Part shown: piece after piece, positions 233-61,524 of the stretch
How positions within the stretch are numbered: position 1 is the first letter of the stretch
Layout of the letters: every line of letters starts with the position of its first letter
DNA from: an uncultured Candidatus Saccharibacteria bacterium
GTDB taxonomy: Bacteria > Patescibacteriota > Minisyncoccia > Phycocordibacterales > PALSA-1337
Length of the DNA: 64,000 nucleotides
NCBI GenBank assembly: GCA_964468845.1
Contig: CAYXWP010000001.1
Span: forward strand, 6,411-70,410
Direction: 5' to 3'
Notes under the pieces: model-generated
The model's database searches: none
Seen by the model: only the letters and a program-made list of their open reading frames with translations
Told to the model about the DNA's origin: nothing
Position numbers and translations under genes: made by a program

Positions 233-1369
233 CTATTCATGTACAACTCTTAGAACTTCCTCCTGACTTGTAATTCCCTTTTCGACCTTGCACATTCCAT
301 CCTCGTACATTGTGACCATGCCCTTACTTCTTACATATTTACCTATTTCGTCTATAGAGATATGAGACATAATGTATTTTCTGAGCTCTTCGTCGACAAC
401 TATAGTTTCCGCAATCACAGTTCTTCCCCGATAACCAATAGTTCCGCAATCGGCACAACCAATACCTTTGCATTCCTGACATATCTTTCTAACTAACCTT
501 TGTGCGATAACTAAGGATAAAGTTGAGGCAACGAGGTAAGGATCAATTTTCATATCAAACAATCTAGGAATCGCACCAAGTGCAGAATTGGTGTGTAAAG
601 TAGATAAGAGTAAATGCCCAGTCAGAGAAATGTTTGTAGCAATCTGAGCTGTCTCAGTATCACGAATTTCACCAACCATAATAATATCTGGATCTTGCCT
701 AACAATGGATCTCAAACCATTTGCAAAAGTAATACCATGCTTAGAATGTATTTGTATTTGCCGAACCCCTGATATTGCATACTCGATCGGATCTTCAAGA
801 GTAATGATGGAATTTTTCTGTGAAGAAAGTGACGAAATTAAAGTATACAGTGTTGAGGTTTTGCCAGAACCAGTCGGTCCAGTGACCAGTATCATTCCTT
901 GATGTTGTGTTAGTAGGTTTTCGATTCGCATAATGTCATGTTCTGAAAATCCGAGCTTCGACAAGGACATTGAATCATTATTATTTTTTAATATTCTCAA
1001 AACTGCATTTTCACCGTAATGAGTCGGGATAATCGAGACACGCACATCGCAATCACAAACACCTTCATTAAATTTAAATCTTCCATCCTGCGGCACAAAG
1101 TGAATGTCTGTTCTCAAAGCAGAAATTACTTTTATCCTAGCAATGAGTTCTTCATGACTTTCATTTCTTAATGTGTCTTTGTATATCAAAACCCCATCTA
1201 CACGAAATCTGACGACAATACCTGCGGGTGTTGGATCTATATGTATATCAGAGGCATTTAAATGATAGCCGTAGCATATTATTGAATTCACCAGTTCAAC
1301 AACTGATTGAATATCGTGTAATACCCTTTCATTTAAATTAATTTTGTATTGCTCATCTGGCATACACAT
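233..1369 (-). CDS. Type II/IV secretion system ATPase, GspE/PilB family
   Basis: Walker A GPTGSGKTST, Asp/His boxes, and a C-terminal tetracysteine CQEC...CADCG motif that is typical of GspE/PilB and absent from PilT. At 378 aa the N-terminal domain is shortened. Confidence 0.8.
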   Translation of the reverse strand: MCMPDEQYKINLNERVLHDIQSVVELVNSIICYGYHLNASDIHIDPTPAGIVVRFRVDGVLIYKDTLRNESHEELIARIKVISALRTDIHFVPQDGRFKFNEGVCDCDVRVSIIPTHYGENAVLRILKNNNDSMSLSKLGFSEHDIMRIENLLTQHQGMILVTGPTGSGKTSTLYTLISSLSSQKNSIITLEDPIEYAISGVRQIQIHSKHGITFANGLRSIVRQDPDIIMVGEIRDTETAQIATNISLTGHLLLSTLHTNSALGAIPRLFDMKIDPYLVASTLSLVIAQRLVRKICQECKGIGCADCGTIGYRGRTVIAETIVVDEELRKYIMSHISIDEIGKYVRSKGMVTMYEDGMCKVEKGITSQEEVLRVVHE

Positions 1370-1410: not shown

Positions 1411-1666
1411 AAGAAACAATAAAGATTTAGTACTATGTGCTCATATTCCACATCGCTTGCTATTATTTAAATGTGTGTTAGTATCTTCAACCTAACTTCG
1501 GCACTCAAACAAAAGCTCAGGACGGGCACGGTGTCGAAAAAAGAACAACTGTACACTGCAAAAAACATGACAAGCGACCACGACACTCGAGGTGGAGACC
1601 ACGATGACGAAATCATCACGGCCACACTCAACGATTGAACGAAGACTCGTCTCCACACACCGCTGC

Positions 1667-1700
1667 GCCACTGTAAAACGGGGCCAGTGGTTATTTTTTT
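1667..1700 (+). terminator. Rho-independent terminator (ccactg/cagtgg stem followed by TTATTTTTTT)
   Basis: Stem 1668-1673/1685-1690 followed by a T-run at 1691-1700. Confidence 0.45.
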
Positions 1701-2055
1701 AGCCTGTGGATGAATTCATTGAAATACGTTGATAATTGGATATAAAAAGATAGACTATTGATATTTTCTAGGGATGTGGTACTATTTTTCTTGGCTCTGG
1801 CACTCAACAATTGATAGGTCCAACACTGGACAAAGTGTCAGAATAGAAACAACAAATCGGAGTAACAGAAATGTTCAAAAAAAAACATCTGTTGGGAAAA
1901 ATGCGTCGCAGTCGGCAATCCGCCATCAGGTCTCATCGGAGAGAGACAAACTGCAAACTCAAGATTTTGGCCGCTGAGGCCGAATGGGTGTTGCGCATCG
2001 ACACCGAAGACGCAATGGTCGCAGAAGAGTAACCCGCGACTTTGTTTTCCCAATC

Positions 2056-2096
2056 GCCGCCGGACCCAATCAGCTGGGCCCGGTGGCTATTATTTT
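2056..2096 (+). terminator. Rho-independent terminator (GC-rich imperfect 12-bp stem plus TATTATTTT)
   Basis: gccgccggaccc / gggcccggtggc pairing with an 8-nt loop, then a T-rich tail. It lies 70 nt before the typA start. Confidence 0.4.
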
Positions 2097-2167
2097 ACCC
2101 AAATTTCTCGACACACCTATAATTTGACTTTTACTATGTTTTTATGCTTTAATAGCAACTTAACTTT

Positions 2168-3967
2168 ATGGATATACGAAACATCGCAATCATCGCCCAT
2201 GTGGACCATGGAAAGACGACACTTACTGACGCAATCATGACTCAATGTGGTCACGGGGACGACGGTACAATGGACTCAAACGCCCTTGAACAAGAGCGTG
2301 GTATTACTATTTATGCAAAAAACACTTCGATTGAATATAAAGGAACAAAGATAAATATTGTGGACACACCAGGTCACGCGGACTTTGGCTCAGAAGTAGA
2401 ACGTGTTCTACGATCTATTGATACAGTTCTTCTTGTTGTTGATGCGCAGGAAGGTCCAATGCCTCAAACACGTTTCGTGTTGAAGAAATCTCTAGAACTT
2501 GGTTTAAAGCCAATTGTAATTATAAATAAAATAGACAAGCCAGCAGCGAACCCAAATCATTGTCATGAAATGGTTCTTGAACTTTTCATGGAGCTTGGTG
2601 CGAATGATTCCCAATTAGACTTCCCTACTATTTACGCTATCGGACGTGAAGGTGTGGCTATGAAGAAACTCGGAGATCCAAGAAAAGATCTTACTCCTCT
2701 TCTAGATATGATTCTTGAACACGTTCCACCTGCAAATAAAGATCACAGTGCAACAGCGCCACTTACAGTACAAACTTTCAATCTTGGATATGATAATTTC
2801 CTAGGACGTCTAGCTATCGGTCGTATTTATGATGGAACAATTAAAATGGGTCAAACAGTTTATGAAAAGAAAATTGGTGGAACAGTGAACTCTGGAAAAG
2901 TAACTAAACTTTTTACATTTGAAGGAAAGAAGAGAGTTGAGATAAACGAAGCAACCGCTGGTGACATTGTTACAATCGCTGGATTCCCAGAAATTTATAT
3001 TGGAGAAACTCTTACAGACAATGCAGAAACTCCGGCTCTTCCTGCAATCAAAATTGATGAACCAACCATTTCCCTAAACTTTCTTGTAAACAGTTCACCT
3101 TTCGCAGGACGCGAAGGTAAATTCGTAACCGGACGACAGATTCGAGAAAGACTCGAGAAGGAACTGGAAATCAACGTTGGTCTAAAAGTGGATTTTTCAT
3201 CTGATGTGTTCTATCGCGTTTACGGTCGTGGAGAACTTCATATTGCAGTACTTCTAGAAAATATGAGACGAGAAGGATATGAACTTCAGGTTTCTCAGCC
3301 TCAGGTTATCATAAAAGATATTGACGGAGTGAAGAGCGAACCTTTTGAAGAACTTACTATTGATACTCCTGATGAGTTCACAGGTGCAATTATCGAAAAG
3401 CTCGGTAAAAGAAAAGCGACAATGATAGATATGAAAACAAAAGAAGGTATAACTCGTATGCTTTTCGAAATACCTACTCGTGGTCTACTTGGCTATAGAG
3501 GTGCTTTCGTTATCGATACAAAGGGTAATGGAATTCTCGCAAGTCGATTTATTGATTTCAAACCGTATGCAGGTGAAATTGAAAAGCATTCAACTGGATC
3601 AATGACTTCTATGATGTCAGGAAAGGCACTTGCCTTTGCAATTTGGAATTTACAAAATCGTGGCCGTATTTTCATTGAACCTACAACAGAAATTTATGAA
3701 GGAATGGTTGTTGGTGATACATCAAAGGGTGATGATATGGATGTTAACCCATGTAAAGGAAAAGCGATGTCAAACATGCGTTCTTCTGGAAACGATGAGC
3801 ACATCATGCTTACACCTGCTTGGAAAATTGATATCGAAAGAGGACTAGAAACAATGCGTGAAGATGAGTATTTAGAAATTACTCCAAAGAACGTACGTTT
3901 ACGAAAAAAGTTTTTGACTGCGACAGATAGATCAAAAGCAGGAAGAAAGGATGGGGTGACGAATTAA
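2168..3967 (+). CDS. typA: Translational GTPase TypA/BipA
   Basis: N-terminus MDIRNIAIIAHVDHGKTTL, G1-G4 GTPase motifs and full EF-G-like domain organisation over 599 aa. Confidence 0.95.
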   Translation: MDIRNIAIIAHVDHGKTTLTDAIMTQCGHGDDGTMDSNALEQERGITIYAKNTSIEYKGTKINIVDTPGHADFGSEVERVLRSIDTVLLVVDAQEGPMPQTRFVLKKSLELGLKPIVIINKIDKPAANPNHCHEMVLELFMELGANDSQLDFPTIYAIGREGVAMKKLGDPRKDLTPLLDMILEHVPPANKDHSATAPLTVQTFNLGYDNFLGRLAIGRIYDGTIKMGQTVYEKKIGGTVNSGKVTKLFTFEGKKRVEINEATAGDIVTIAGFPEIYIGETLTDNAETPALPAIKIDEPTISLNFLVNSSPFAGREGKFVTGRQIRERLEKELEINVGLKVDFSSDVFYRVYGRGELHIAVLLENMRREGYELQVSQPQVIIKDIDGVKSEPFEELTIDTPDEFTGAIIEKLGKRKATMIDMKTKEGITRMLFEIPTRGLLGYRGAFVIDTKGNGILASRFIDFKPYAGEIEKHSTGSMTSMMSGKALAFAIWNLQNRGRIFIEPTTEIYEGMVVGDTSKGDDMDVNPCKGKAMSNMRSSGNDEHIMLTPAWKIDIERGLETMREDEYLEITPKNVRLRKKFLTATDRSKAGRKDGVTN

Positions 3968-4058
3968 TGGAGTACCCCAAAAAACTGACCCCCTCCTCCT
4001 CTCTCTTCCTTTCACTCCAACGCACTCCTGCACAGCCACGCTGTAGAAGCCCCCTAGT

Positions 4059-4089
4059 TAAAGGTGACCAAATTTTGGTCACCTTTTGC
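4059..4089 (+). terminator. Intrinsic terminator of typA
   Basis: Perfect aaggtgacc / ggtcacctt stem with loop aaatttt, followed by TTTGCT. Confidence 0.6.
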
Positions 4090-4140
4090 TATGTGGTACA
4101 GCGCCATAACAAACGAAGCCTCGTCTTTCATTCGTAAATA

Positions 4141-4191: not shown

Positions 4192-4572
4192 TCATACAGT
4201 GTCCAGTTTGACAGCACCCATCAAGATGACAGGATTTTGCCCTTGGAAGAATTGACTGATCCGGCCGGCAACACCGAAGGTTAGAATCACGTGCCGTCCA
4301 CGATCATTTACGTATCCGGCAAACTCCGACTCAGGAACAAAGATTTCAATCTTGTTTTCGACCTGGCAATGGCCCGATTCAGTCTGTTGTGCAAGACTTA
4401 GATTGAGAACCCGAAGATGGTCTGGATCGAGCATGACCTCGAGCCAGCATTTCGTTTCTTTGAAAATCCACCAGCCACTTGTTTTTGAGGTGACAGATGT
4501 AATGACACCTCTTACGTTGTACTCCTGTCGGTTACGCCGTAGGTTCGGGTTGATACTAAGTATTGATACCAT
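4192..4572 (-). CDS. Hypothetical protein (126 aa), GC-richer than the backbone
   Basis: Complete ORF with its own terminator. No family recognised. Confidence 0.4.
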   Translation of the reverse strand: MVSILSINPNLRRNRQEYNVRGVITSVTSKTSGWWIFKETKCWLEVMLDPDHLRVLNLSLAQQTESGHCQVENKIEIFVPESEFAGYVNDRGRHVILTFGVAGRISQFFQGQNPVILMGAVKLDTV

Positions 4573-4822
4573 AATTTATCCTCCGTATTGTTGTTGACTG
4601 CGTTTTCAAAATTCTCGATACATTTTTAAATTAACACAAACATCTTATGCTGTCAATATTATTTTATGTCTAAGTAAAAATTCGCTTCTAGCGATTGCTT
4701 TTTTACATATAAAATCCAGTTGATAAATCCAGTAATTGGAGTATTATGCAATCAGTAAAACTGTAGGTAAATCAACAGCAACAAATAACGGTCTTTGAAA
4801 CCACACAACAACTGGGACAACA

Positions 4823-5530
4823 ATGAAAACGACAATTAAACTCGTAGTCTTCTACTTCCTTCTTCAATTGTGCAACCACGCCAGTGCGGCATACTCTGTT
4901 CAATCGGCTTGGTTTCCTTACGGGCCACAATACAACATCCAAGTGTACCGTCTTTTTTGGGGAACAAATAGTGGCGAGTACACGCATACGCAAGACTTTG
5001 GTTTGGAGACGAATCTCGCTCCCCGACCCGACATCATCCGTGTGTTAAATGTCACAATCGAAGTTCCCAACGCAGGACAGACTTACTATTTCATGATCAG
5101 AGGCATCGACAGCAACGGAAATGAGTTTGGGACTTCGGAGGAGTATCCTTGGTGGGTGCAACGCGAAAATGATGCACGTCCATCAATCTCCGCAATTCCC
5201 AACCGCCATTTTTTGATCAACAGTGTATCGAATACAGTGCCCTTCACAATTGGGGACGACCAGACACCACTCGATGAATTGGAAGTGTACTACACTGCAT
5301 GGAACCCGATCATCATACCAGCGACAAACATTTCGCTTGGTGGGTCCGGTGCAAATCGTACGATTACACTGACGCCGATAACTGGGCGCACAGGTACGAC
5401 CACTGTCGAAGTTATTGTTATCGATAACAATCTAAGTCCGAAAGCAACAACATTCATTGTTGAAGTTTCAGCAAATCCAGGAATTACGAGTCCTAGATTA
5501 CTTTGGTTCAAAACAGTTCCCTTGCCATAG
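4823..5530 (+). CDS. Secreted protein with signal peptide and fibronectin-III / Ig-like beta-sandwich domains
   Basis: N-terminal hydrophobic signal ending in ASAAYS. An FN3-like block (YRLFWGTNSGEYTHTQDFG...TYYFMIRGIDSNGNE) is followed by a second Ig-like segment. Confidence 0.5.
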   Translation: MKTTIKLVVFYFLLQLCNHASAAYSVQSAWFPYGPQYNIQVYRLFWGTNSGEYTHTQDFGLETNLAPRPDIIRVLNVTIEVPNAGQTYYFMIRGIDSNGNEFGTSEEYPWWVQRENDARPSISAIPNRHFLINSVSNTVPFTIGDDQTPLDELEVYYTAWNPIIIPATNISLGGSGANRTITLTPITGRTGTTTVEVIVIDNNLSPKATTFIVEVSANPGITSPRLLWFKTVPLP

Positions 5531-13605: not shown

Positions 13606-13684
13606 GCATAAATAATATCAGAAAAGACTACATTTTGGAAGAAAGAGGAAGGAAAAAAGAAGAAAAGCCAAAATAACTGCTATA

Positions 13685-54984: not shown

Positions 54985-56475
54985 ATGGCTCACATCCCTC
55001 AGTCAGTACTTGAAAAACAAGCAGTTATCGAAGGCCTCAGTCTGCGTGGTCGTGGAAAAGTTCGCGAATCGTATGACCTGCTCGGGCATCCAAACGAAAT
55101 GCTAGTGGTGGCATCAAACCGCTGTAGCATCTTCGATTTTGTTTTACCAGCCTTGGTCCGCCTTAAAGGAGAAATCCTGACGGCGATGAACCACTTTTGG
55201 GTGACGAATGTCATCGGTGAAATCTTTGAAACCGACCTCGTCGCCTGCGGATCCGGCGTGGATCTGTTTCTGCCAGAGGGTCTGCGTGGTAATGCGGAAC
55301 TTCAGAAGCAAGCCACGGTGGTGAGAATTCTCCCCGCTCCAGACGTTGAGGACGTCGTACGTTTTATCCTCACTGGAGGTGGTTGGGAAAGCTACAAGGC
55401 AACGCAAAGCATCTGTGGGCATCGCTTTCCGAATGGCCTCAGTGATGGAAGCAGGCTTCCATTTCCAGTTTACACCCCAACAACGAAAGCGGCCGTCGGT
55501 CATGATGAACACATCACTGCCGACAGTGTCGCCGAACGTTATGGTGTAAAACGCGAAAGGATGTCTCTGCAGGTAGCTGGGCTTATCGCAAGTTACGCTG
55601 CCAGTCGTGGAATTATTCTCGCAGACACCAAGTTTGAGTTCAGTCTGAGCAATGGGAAGTTGATTTTGGCGGATGAAAAAGGAACCCCGGACTCGAGCCG
55701 ATTCGTCGACAAGGCGACCTGGGAAAAACTCGCGTCAAAGGGCAAGTTTCCGCCCTCACTCGACAAACAATACATTCGTGATTGGGGCATCAAAGCAGGG
55801 GTCAAAATACGAGATCCCCGTAAAGCTGAGGATCTAGCCTTTGTTGACTCGCTTGAAGTGCCGGAACGAGTCACAGATATGACCACCAGCATTTACCGCT
55901 ATGTCTTCTGGAGGCTGACCGGCAAGCAAATCGAGTATTATCAGCGTGACATCTTGGGAATCGCCATGCAGACACCCACACGACGCAAGATCCATGTCGT
56001 GGTCGGAAGCGAAAGCGACTTACCGCAAATTGTCAGGGGGGTTGATTCCATGCGAGTTGTTGCTGACGTGGGTGTAAGCGCCATCAGTTGTCATCGCAAC
56101 CCGGATGAACTGCGACGTTTCGTTCGTGATGAACTAACCACGACTGATGTAGTCATCGCCGGCGCTGGGAAAGCTGCAGCATTACCTGGAATTATCAAGA
56201 GCTACTTGTGCGAACTCGGCAGCCATGTGCCAGTCATTGGTGTTGCCCTTGATTCTGAAAACAGGAAGGACAATGATGCAGCAATATATTCGATTGAATG
56301 CTTGCCAGGGCAACCTGTCGAACTTGATGCCGACGGCAATGCCTATTTCGGCCCAATCGGTTTCATGAAGGCTTGTAGTGCCGCTTCGTGGGATGAGTTC
56401 CTCCCGAAGGCAGTCGAACACAAACCTGCGAAAATCCATATCGAGGGGCAACTTGGGCGGTCTTATCCCCACTAA
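54985..56475 (+). CDS. Bifunctional SAICAR synthetase (PurC) / N5-CAIR mutase-type PurE fusion protein; GC-rich
   Basis: The N-terminal about 300 aa carry PurC motifs (RGRGKVRESYDL, SNRCSIFDF, FWV). The C-terminal about 170 aa carry PurE motifs (HVVVGSESDLPQ, SCHRNPDEL, IAGAGKAAALPG, PVIGVAL). The AGAGxAAxLPG form is class I-like. Confidence 0.8.
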   Translation: MAHIPQSVLEKQAVIEGLSLRGRGKVRESYDLLGHPNEMLVVASNRCSIFDFVLPALVRLKGEILTAMNHFWVTNVIGEIFETDLVACGSGVDLFLPEGLRGNAELQKQATVVRILPAPDVEDVVRFILTGGGWESYKATQSICGHRFPNGLSDGSRLPFPVYTPTTKAAVGHDEHITADSVAERYGVKRERMSLQVAGLIASYAASRGIILADTKFEFSLSNGKLILADEKGTPDSSRFVDKATWEKLASKGKFPPSLDKQYIRDWGIKAGVKIRDPRKAEDLAFVDSLEVPERVTDMTTSIYRYVFWRLTGKQIEYYQRDILGIAMQTPTRRKIHVVVGSESDLPQIVRGVDSMRVVADVGVSAISCHRNPDELRRFVRDELTTTDVVIAGAGKAAALPGIIKSYLCELGSHVPVIGVALDSENRKDNDAAIYSIECLPGQPVELDADGNAYFGPIGFMKACSAASWDEFLPKAVEHKPAKIHIEGQLGRSYPH

Positions 56476-60228: not shown

Positions 60229-61524
60229 TCAGTGGACCGCCAAGGACTTGGCACCGATATCTTTCCGATACTGTGCACCTTCGAAGTCGATGCACTCCAC
60301 ACCGTTGTAAGCGTGATCGAGTGCTTCCTGTAGCGTTGCACCGATGCCGGTGACACCGAGGACACGTCCGCCAGATGTGACGAGATGGCTATCAGTTTGC
60401 TTGGTACCTGCATGGAACACGACGACGCCAGGAAGAATCTCGGCGTTATCGATGCCTGTGATCGGCAGACCTTTTTTGTAGTTAGGCGATGGGTAGCCAC
60501 CGGACGCCATTACAATGCAGGCAGCGAAGCCCGGATTCCACTCGACGTTGATCTCATGGAGTCGTCCTTCGACGCACGCCTCCAAGATGTCGAGCAGATC
60601 TGTTTTCAAGAGACACATGTAAACCTGTGTCTCCGGATCGCCGAATCGCGCATTGAACTCGAGGACCATGGGTCCCGCTTCTGGCATCTTGAGTCCGGGA
60701 TAAAGCAAACCGACGAACGGCGAGCCTTTTTCGCGGAGCCCGCTAAGAATTGGGCCGATGATCTGTTCACTCACCGCATTGTGGTCTTTGAACCACGGGA
60801 CCGGAGCAATCGTACCCATGCCACCGGTGTTCGAACCATCGTCGCCATCGAATGCCGGCTTATGATCCTGCGCTGACGGAAACAGCTTGAACGACTTGCC
60901 ATCGCAGAACGCATGGATAGACACTTCCTGTCCGCCTACATATTCTTCGATGATGACCTCATCGCCAGCGCTTCCATGAAGGTGCTTCACCATGACCTCG
61001 TCGAGAGCCTGTTCAGCTTCGGTAAAATCACGGCAGACGTACGCTCCTTTTCCGAGAGCGAGACCTGATGCCTTCACGACAATCGGTAGTCCAAAGTACG
61101 TAGCAAAATGCCTGCGCACGTCCTCGAGGACTTGAGTGTGGTCCGTGTAAACATCGAACAATGCTGTCGGCACGCCGCAATCTTTCATGAGACGTTTCGA
61201 GAACACCTTCGATGCCTCGATTTGAGCCGCTGCCTTGGTGGGACCGAAGATGCGAAGGCCTTTTGCCTGAAATGCATCCACGATGCCGAGTGCGAGCGGA
61301 TCGTCTTGGCCGACGATAGTGAATTCGATCCCTTCCTTGAGTGCGAAGGCTAAGAGGCCGTCAACGTCCGTAGCTTTCACTGGAACGTTTTCTGCGATCT
61401 GAGCCGTGCCAGCATTACCTGGAGCGACGAAGAGTTTGCCGAGTCGGGGGGATTGGCGAAGTTTCCACGCAATTGCGTGTTCACGGCCGCCACCTCCGAC
61501 CAGTAGGACTTTCATTTGGTTCAT
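60229..61524 (-). CDS. purD: Phosphoribosylamine--glycine ligase (GAR synthetase), copy 2; strongly GC-rich
   Basis: MKVLLVGGGGREHAIAW and an ATP-grasp domain with LEFNARFGDPE. AAGGAG lies 8 nt upstream of the ATG. Roughly 40-45% identical to copy 1 by eye. Confidence 0.9.
   Translation of the reverse strand: MNQMKVLLVGGGGREHAIAWKLRQSPRLGKLFVAPGNAGTAQIAENVPVKATDVDGLLAFALKEGIEFTIVGQDDPLALGIVDAFQAKGLRIFGPTKAAAQIEASKVFSKRLMKDCGVPTALFDVYTDHTQVLEDVRRHFATYFGLPIVVKASGLALGKGAYVCRDFTEAEQALDEVMVKHLHGSAGDEVIIEEYVGGQEVSIHAFCDGKSFKLFPSAQDHKPAFDGDDGSNTGGMGTIAPVPWFKDHNAVSEQIIGPILSGLREKGSPFVGLLYPGLKMPEAGPMVLEFNARFGDPETQVYMCLLKTDLLDILEACVEGRLHEINVEWNPGFAACIVMASGGYPSPNYKKGLPITGIDNAEILPGVVVFHAGTKQTDSHLVTSGGRVLGVTGIGATLQEALDHAYNGVECIDFEGAQYRKDIGAKSLAVH

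Follow-up and report, generated by a model that had tools for sequence, protein, structure and literature searches.

Two small transcription units between pilB and typA in a Candidatus Saccharibacteria genome: predicted members of a fast-evolving cassette family

What is encoded by a GC-rich island that lies between two conserved genes of an AT-rich bacterial genome and in which no protein is readily seen? The question is raised by a stretch of 64,000 nucleotides (nt), here called the window, from an uncultured Candidatus Saccharibacteria bacterium (GenBank assembly GCA_964468845.1, contig CAYXWP010000001.1, positions 6,411 to 70,410), in which a pilB gene and typA, divergently oriented (pilB on the minus and typA on the plus strand), flank a GC-rich block at 1467-2097. 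An earlier reading of the letters by eye (the sequence-only reading) took this block as a candidate for one or more structured RNA genes. The best explanation, to which we give about an even chance of being right, is that the block consists of two members of a cassette family, of which the second (unit 2) is an unannotated small-protein gene and the first (unit 1) its truncated or degenerate paralogue. The existence of independent small transcripts, as predicted from the sequence, is supported; the evidence leans away from a new structured RNA gene, and the GC-rich block is more likely to be small-protein mRNA. The family appears, from sequence comparisons, to be lineage-specific and to fill the pilB-typA slot across Taylorbacteria and Paceibacteria, with one promoter/leader/terminator scaffold driving a divergent adenylate kinase-like (ADK-like) gene, or small basic proteins that evolve very fast (one to three of them, of 33-89 amino acids (aa)), or both.

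The block is enriched in GC, as the sequence-only reading had it (45.6%, the window as a whole having 36.3%; a GC content this high is reached in only 5.8% of stretches of 631 nt), but it is not one block. It comprises two A/C-rich, T-poor segments of about 50% GC, at 1491-1697 (50.7%) and 1792-2094 (49.5%), split by a spacer at 1698-1791 that has 29% GC and carries the second promoter. Each segment corresponds to its own plus-strand unit, with a promoter, a 5'-terminal stem-loop and a terminator (Table 1). Both promoters are of the sigma70 type with an extended -10 element, and the predicted transcription start sites (TSS) fall at about 1491 and 1792. The two plus-strand terminators had already been recognised by eye, and they hold up as stable hairpins each followed by a U-run; a generic terminator scanner missed both on account of its loop and bulge limits, and a dedicated scan found both. 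The transcript lengths proposed earlier, about 200 and about 350 nt, are likewise close to those predicted from the promoters, about 205 nt for unit 1 and about 300 nt for unit 2. Neither the promoters themselves nor the relationship of the two units to each other had been noticed.

That relationship is seen at both ends of the units. An exact 9-mer, GGCACTCAA, has only two occurrences in the 64 kilobases, at 1500-1508 and at 1799-1807, both 13-15 nt past a -10 box, and the terminators have an arm, CCRGTGGYTATT, in common (represented by CCAGTGGTTATT in unit 1 and by CCGGTGGCTATT in unit 2); units 1 and 2 are regarded as paralogous on these grounds. The leaders are built alike, unit 1 having an outer stem UUCGGCACU/GGUGUCGAA around an inner hairpin GCUC..GGGC, and unit 2 an outer stem CUGGCACUC/AGUGUCAG around an inner hairpin GGUCC..GGAC.

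The slot was then compared in relatives, from 80 GTDB loci gathered via TypA and from more obtained via PilB homologues and via the pattern of the typA promoter, which also pulled typA loci out of metagenomes. These loci are referred to by number (L001 and so on). The order pilB-typA was seen in 54 of them. TypA from the window is 94% identical to TypA of several metagenome-assembled genomes of Taylorbacteria and Paceibacteria (Candidate Phyla Radiation (CPR)/Patescibacteria), and identical copies of the locus are present in groundwater assemblies (L081-L084). Across about 60 relatives the content of the slot is variable: it may be empty (about 180 bp in L022, L024 and L026), or it may contain an ADK-like gene, one to three small units, or both. 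The ADK-like gene, present in the slot of most relatives, lies on the typA strand, encodes 180-310 aa and gives a weak match to the Pfam adenylate kinase family (PF00406; E 1e-4 to 3e-8). One small unit is found in L001 and three in L007; L085 has an ADK-like gene and two small units, and L002, L005, L006 and L096 have an ADK-like gene and one small unit each, the location in all seven being the same as that of the window units. Among themselves the ADK-like slot genes have diverged widely, and several loci (L044, L047 and L052) carry two copies in tandem.

The ADK-like genes are themselves GC-rich, in 39 loci exceeding the GC content of their own loci by 5 points on average and by up to 17 (48% against 31% in L020). 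GC-richness is thus a property of the slot, protein-coding content included, so that the rule of thumb invoked in the sequence-only reading, by which islands of high GC in AT-rich surroundings point to structured RNAs, is inapplicable here. In the homologous region of relatives, moreover, the same scaffold carries an ADK-family gene and small open reading frames (ORFs), which goes against the claim of a structured RNA gene; protein-coding content at this place in relatives had been named in the sequence-only reading itself as a ground for refutation.

The common scaffold is most readily followed through a motif, TGGCTGTTCTTY, located about 7 nt past the -10 box and common to the ADK-like and the small units of relatives; in L006 the exact 12-mer occurs twice, once in each unit. 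An nhmmer profile of the motif matches essentially only typA-upstream slots, and in the window the sole near-match elsewhere, at 13659, is without extended -10 promoter context. The motif constitutes the 5' strand of a 5'-terminal stem-loop, which is followed by an A-rich linker and then by the start codon. For 29 leaders the mean z-score of folding (z) is -1.70 (t-test p=7e-10), and the 5' end is paired in 23 of the 29 when 12.9 would be expected; such per-sequence statistics were used instead of a covariance model, for which the MAFFT alignment of the leader hairpins misaligned the 3' strands. The window units carry TGGCTCTGGCACTCAAC and TTCGGCACTCAAAC in place of TGGCTGTTCTTY, and in their leaders the hairpin architecture survives through a compensatory change, GGCAC being paired with GUGUC. 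Both have several of the features by which the family is recognised, namely a pilB-typA location on the typA strand, a TTGnnn-16/17-TGnTAnnnT promoter, a 5' stem-loop of about 40-50 nt with an A-rich linker, and a terminator. The promoter architecture of unit 1 matches that of unit promoters in L085, L007, L002 and L006; the -10/TSS region of unit 2 is identical at 21 of 23 positions to the promoter of L096 unit B, and its leader is partly similar to the leader of L002 unit B (TTGGCTGCTCTTCAATTG versus TTGGCTCTGGCACTCAACAATTG). At the other end, a terminator arm GGTGGYT..TTATTTT is common to the window units and to those of L007 and L085. The motif together with its 5' hairpin, which is not in Rfam, marks the typA-adjacent cassette family and is a candidate cis-regulatory element.

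The transcribed bodies behave quite differently from these signals. Between L085 and L007 the inter-unit DNA, comprising terminator tails and promoters, is 79-91% identical, against 66% for third codon positions of typA, whereas the transcribed bodies are unalignable; the expression signals are thus maintained by selection, and the products diverge very fast. (The stretches compared are L085 2300-4010, reverse strand, and L007 3700-5010; L085 unit C and L007 unit 3 both begin MKKPN.) When positions 1400-2167 of the window were compared with 104 related loci by blastn (word size 7), only the typA promoter and 5' untranslated region (UTR), the AT-rich region next to pilB and a 23-nt promoter match could be aligned. 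The identity of typA third codon positions between the window and every relative is 0.49-0.62, so that neutral sites are saturated; unalignable unit bodies therefore say little on function, and both window units keep intact signals despite this saturation.

Do the bodies encode protein? The longest sense ATG-initiated ORF in each of 13 small units was compared with 2000 dinucleotide-preserving shuffles of the respective transcript body, and the ORFs proved longer than those in shuffles (Fisher combined p=5.6e-8). Within the small units the start of these ORFs lies between +3 and +87 and the stop 10-30 nt ahead of the terminator, and the 11 predicted peptides of relatives' units are hydrophilic, with isoelectric points (pI) of 9.0-12.0. 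A type I toxin was set aside because the peptides are hydrophilic and not membrane-like; no dedicated test was made. The one informative close pair of loci is L002 and L005, whose unit B contains a 51-codon ORF in which seven consecutive differences are all at third positions and synonymous, and in which identity at codon positions 1, 2 and 3 is 0.90, 0.96 and 0.75. For the same pair, third positions are 69% identical in typA and 54% in the ADK-like gene. A peptide of about 52 aa, 'MAR...KPG', is conserved in unit B of L002, L005, L006 and L096 (blastp E=4.5e-5).

It is in this setting that a plus-strand ORF of 53 codons in unit 2, at 1871-2032, becomes noteworthy, since its position is that of the small ORFs in the corresponding units of relatives. 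The sequence-only reading had found no plausible protein in any frame. For the ORFs of 63-71 aa that it cited this judgement stands, each being either on the minus strand or initiated within a promoter; the 53-aa ORF had been overlooked. It runs from the first ATG after the leader hairpin to a stop 23 nt short of the terminator hairpin, in line with 11 small units of relatives, and the predicted peptide has a pI of 10.0, with seven lysine or arginine residues among its first 15.

Table 1. Predicted elements of the two units and of the genes that border them, in window coordinates
Feature	Position	Strand	Details
Unit 1 promoter	1457..1484	+	-35 TTGCTA (1457-1462), 16-nt spacer, extended -10 TGtTAGTAT (1476-1484); sequence reading, regex
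Unit 1 5'-terminal leader stem-loop	1497..1538	+	-13.1 kcal/mol, z -2.65
Unit 1 candidate short ORF	1567..1638	+	23 aa MTSDHDTRGGDHDDEIITATLND; ATG at +76; frame open 1471-1638; weak
Unit 1 intrinsic terminator	1660..1700	+	hairpin 1660-1690 and U-run 1691-1700 (UUAUUUUUUU); -17.5 kcal/mol, z -3.26
Unit 2 promoter	1758..1785	+	-35 TTGATA, 16-nt spacer, extended -10 TGgTACTAT; promoter scan match with TG
Unit 2 5'-terminal leader stem-loop	1796..1842	+	-16.6 kcal/mol, z -3.26; z -4.0 with 5' strand fixed
Unit 2 candidate small ORF	1871..2032	+	53 aa MFKKKHLLGKMRRSRQSAIRSHRRETNCKLKILAAEAEWVLRIDTEDAMVAEE; first ATG after hairpin, +79
Unit 2 intrinsic terminator	2056..2097	+	hairpin 2056-2087 and U-run 2088-2097 (UAUUAUUUU); -24.3 kcal/mol, z -4.63
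pilB/GspE-type pilus ATPase gene	233..1369	-	378 aa; left border of variable slot; ORF list
typA own promoter	2124..2153	+	TTGACTTTT-N6-TTTTTATGCTTTAAT; conserved, alignable to relatives
typA/bipA	2168..3967	+	599 aa; right border of slot

Several results weigh against the assignment of the window units to a family of small-protein genes, and they are best considered together. The unit 2 ORF is not significant on its own (p=0.12 against shuffles). Its peptide is an orphan, with zero matches in 5.8 billion word-indexed proteins and in 1.84 billion searched by HMMER, and in the source assemblies no gene is called at this position. Neither window peptide matches the MAR...KPG profile: an hmmsearch with it through 88 typA-upstream regions, the window among them and all translated in six frames, recovers just its four seed members. 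For the TGGCTGTTCTTY motif the leaders of the window units score under the nhmmer cut-off (E<=10). The RNA of unit 2 is unusually stable (whole unit z -4.8, body z -3.0 to -3.3), and the basic composition of its peptide could simply follow from the A/C-rich nucleotides. Nor is a closer relative at hand by which to judge: the closest pilB protein is 87% identical, and contig look-ups and a metagenome scan gave either the identical groundwater copies or equally distant relatives. As for unit 1, its ORF is short and acidic (pI 4.7), unlike the family, and its length is not significant (p=0.28 against shuffles). Its start is within the family range of +54 to +87, and initiation at an in-frame GTG (1531, within the hairpin) would lengthen the peptide to 35 aa. 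The unit 1 ORF may be degenerate, or unit 1 may be non-coding. Comparison of the 53-aa peptide of unit 2 with Pfam and NCBIfam gave noise only. A single-sequence AlphaFold model of it is one long helix with a confidence score (pLDDT) of 93, to which little weight is given since such a result is typical of sequences rich in lysine, arginine and glutamate.

Some of these results would be accounted for equally if the units were lineage-specific small non-coding or dual-function RNAs, their short ORFs being incidental to a structured and fast-diverging body. Unit 2 does fold far better than its shuffles, as do L007 unit 2 (z -3.7) and the unit of L089 (z -2.7); unit 1 offers no convincing ORF, and that of unit 2 encodes an orphan. 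To this can be added that the promoter, the leader and the first 30 codons of unit B are 97-100% identical between L002 (slot at about 1075-1250) and L005 (about 4610-4790), a figure that, set beside 69% for typA third positions, speaks for constraint beyond coding, although the near-identity could reflect either strong constraint at the nucleotide level or recent recombination. Across the family, though, the unit bodies range in z from +0.2 to -3.7 with a mean of -1.3, so that the stability of unit 2 is an exception; excess structure is absent from most members (z about 0 to -1.9), and the body of unit 1 has z -0.3. The ORFs are kept family-wide, the one informative pair shows a synonymous pattern, the same scaffold drives a bona fide protein gene of 200-310 aa, and there is no Rfam match in the window or in the slots of relatives. 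We consider an RNA function of this kind unlikely. The sequence-only reading is borne out in that the units are self-contained, end at its two terminators and have 5' stem-loops, and in the structured body of unit 2; it is not borne out for the body of unit 1. It would be a bolder proposal that the products of the cassettes are partly structured, hypervariable RNAs, or molecules acting both as RNA and as peptide, and that in place of ordinary orphan small ORFs they form a new class of small, rapidly diversifying regulators linked to the competence-pilus and typA neighbourhood. The juxtaposition of a conserved scaffold with unalignable bodies, in L085 versus L007 and in the window versus all relatives, is what suggests it, and we give it only an outside chance.

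The small-protein explanation must also be set against decay, for the units might be relics of ADK-like cassettes that have been internally deleted and frameshifted and, with promoter and terminator preserved, are still transcribed, with no product of their own. Neither the window nor L001, L007 and L089, the relatives nearest to it, have the ADK-like gene, and the copy in L085 is short (191 aa) and matches weakly; the units are as GC-rich as the ADK-like genes; unit 1 of the window has no family-like ORF; and L007 unit 1 has the promoter and the terminator of the L085 ADK-like unit, with a body that is about 300 nt shorter and unalignable. Against this, a search for an ADK-like remnant in the window units by tblastn with 12 slot proteins (E<=10) gave noise only, and the best score of a profile hidden Markov model on six-frame translations was -1.1 bits. 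Near-consensus promoters, hairpins and strong terminators have been kept despite saturated neutral sites, the signals of L085 and L007 are conserved at 79-91%, and in L002, L005, L006 and L096 small units under purifying selection coexist with intact ADK-like genes. The relic explanation is on this evidence improbable, though it deserves to be taken seriously.

A third possibility, that the block houses a divergent canonical housekeeping RNA (RNase P RNA, transfer-messenger RNA (tmRNA), 6S RNA or signal recognition particle (SRP) RNA) or a typA riboswitch or leader, is scarcely credible. It has in its favour the general knowledge that GC-rich islands in AT-rich genomes are often such RNAs, and no tool result speaks for it. 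A search of the whole window with all 4227 Rfam models at the gathering threshold returned only tRNA-Gln and tRNA-Glu; at E<=10 the region 1300-2250 gave one chance-level match, at 1308-1448 on the minus strand and outside the units, and at E<=1 the slots of L085 and L002 gave nothing. ARAGORN found no tmRNA. The housekeeping and riboswitch identities named in the sequence-only reading accordingly find no family even at the permissive threshold. Moreover, the block is missing or replaced in relatives whose TypA is 94% identical, and the slot is empty in three, so that an essential RNA is unlikely; and, although no dedicated test was made, the termination of both units upstream of typA's own conserved promoter shows that they are not a typA leader or riboswitch. 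In sum, the earlier observation was largely real, and its interpretation is partly supported.

Returning to the units as small-protein genes, the manner in which their translation would begin merits comment. Among 56 ORFs of at least 150 aa in the window, only four have a Shine-Dalgarno-like (SD-like) 4-mer at -18 to -5, which is below the 10% found at random positions, and the start codons lie in A/T-rich leaders. The organism appears, from its sequence, to initiate translation largely without SD sequences, and the scarcity of these fits initiation from the A-rich leaders of the units. Two purine-synthesis genes of 51-55% GC, at 54985-56475 on the plus strand (a fusion of SAICAR synthetase and AIR carboxylase) and at 60229-61524 on the minus strand (GAR synthetase), have a strong SD sequence, rare among window genes (AAAGGAGGAGCT-ATG and AAAGGAGACAAGATC-ATG respectively). 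High GC content and a strong SD in an SD-poor genome of 36% GC suggest that these two genes were acquired recently by horizontal transfer from an SD-using, GC-richer donor.

The closest known kind of element is the unannotated bacterial small-protein gene with a 5' UTR stem-loop; the units belong to no curated RNA or protein family, and literature searches turned up nothing on a locus of this type. Like other small-protein genes (monocistronic, with a promoter and terminator of their own and ORFs below about 60 aa), the units are predicted to be short independent transcripts of 200-300 nt with an ORF of 33-89 aa that fills the body, and their hydrophilic, basic, fast-evolving peptides are missed by gene callers, none having been called in L081 or L085. 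They differ in that they have no homology to families described in Pfam and NCBIfam, in that their translation is here predicted, and in that they form tandem paralogous cassettes in one fixed, variable slot, with a promoter and leader shared with a kinase-like gene. Stem-loops at the 5' end are known to stabilise mRNA, as does the hairpin in the ompA 5' UTR of Escherichia coli, or to protect against RNase J or 5'-end-dependent decay. The units resemble these in that a stem-loop starts within a few nt of their predicted 5' end and gives way to an A-rich, unstructured region for ribosome loading, an arrangement kept across many units; they differ in the 5' strand, whose sequence is conserved (TGGCTGTTCTTY) and overlaps with the TSS, and which may just as well serve as an operator or as an initial-transcribed-sequence signal. 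With the adenylate kinase-family genes the units have in common the slot, the strand, the type of promoter, leader and terminator, and a raised GC content, but those in the window contain no detectable ADK-like coding sequence and are 5-10 times shorter. The small RNAs of Rfam (6S, SRP, tmRNA, RNase P and riboswitches) are comparable in their size of 200-300 nt, high local GC and 3' terminator; the units differ from them in giving no covariance-model match, in not being conserved in relatives, and in the unstructured body of unit 1.

A working model of the cassette can be proposed from these comparisons. The order of elements would be an extended -10 promoter, a 5'-terminal stem-loop, an unstructured A-rich linker, a short ORF, and a terminator some 23-28 nt past the stop codon. 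Each unit would be transcribed separately, and insulated from typA by its own terminator; the 5' hairpin may stabilise or regulate the mRNA, and the A-rich linker may act as an SD-independent ribosome entry site. Unit 2 would give rise to a basic, probably helical peptide of 53 aa, and unit 1 to a peptide of 23-35 aa at most. It is tempting to guess, from the charge of the peptides and the proximity of typA, that they bind nucleic acid or the ribosome.

The surroundings of the slot have peculiarities of their own. The pilus ATPase gene on its left was confirmed by a match to Pfam T2SSE obtained with the identical protein of L081. Upstream of it, the AT-rich region 1380-1430 contains repeated TAAAGAA / TTCTAAAG / ATAAAGATT motifs, conserved with L001, L085, L090 and L088, which may be promoter or operator sequence of pilB. 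On the other side, many relatives (L001 at about 4982-5000, L085, L007, L023, L006, L096 and distant loci) have a short GC hairpin and T-run, for instance CGAGCCACAGGCTC+TTTTT, between the typA promoter and start codon. This could be an attenuator-like element; positions 2154-2167 of the window are without it, which is read as a loss in this genome. The 3' UTR of typA (3968-4091) has a pyrimidine-rich tract of about 100 nt (CCCCCTCCTCCTCTCTCTTCC...) followed by a terminator hairpin, GGTGACCAAATTTTGGTCACC+TTTT. Downstream of typA lie two more GC-rich (45-50%) orphan genes, one of 126 aa at 4192-4572 on the minus strand and the other of 235 aa at 4823-5530 on the plus strand, the latter with an N-terminal segment resembling a signal peptide; neither has a Pfam match, and both are called as genes in L081.

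The findings replace a GC island of mysterious character with a concrete predicted anatomy in which promoter, 5' hairpin, short ORF and terminator each occur twice. Current understanding is not overturned, and the result is a modest one for annotation and evolution. A GC-rich, ORF-poor island in an AT-rich CPR genome need not be a structured RNA, given that here the whole slot, including its protein genes, is GC-rich; and gene callers would appear to be missing recurrent genes for small basic proteins beside typA in Taylorbacteria and Paceibacteria.

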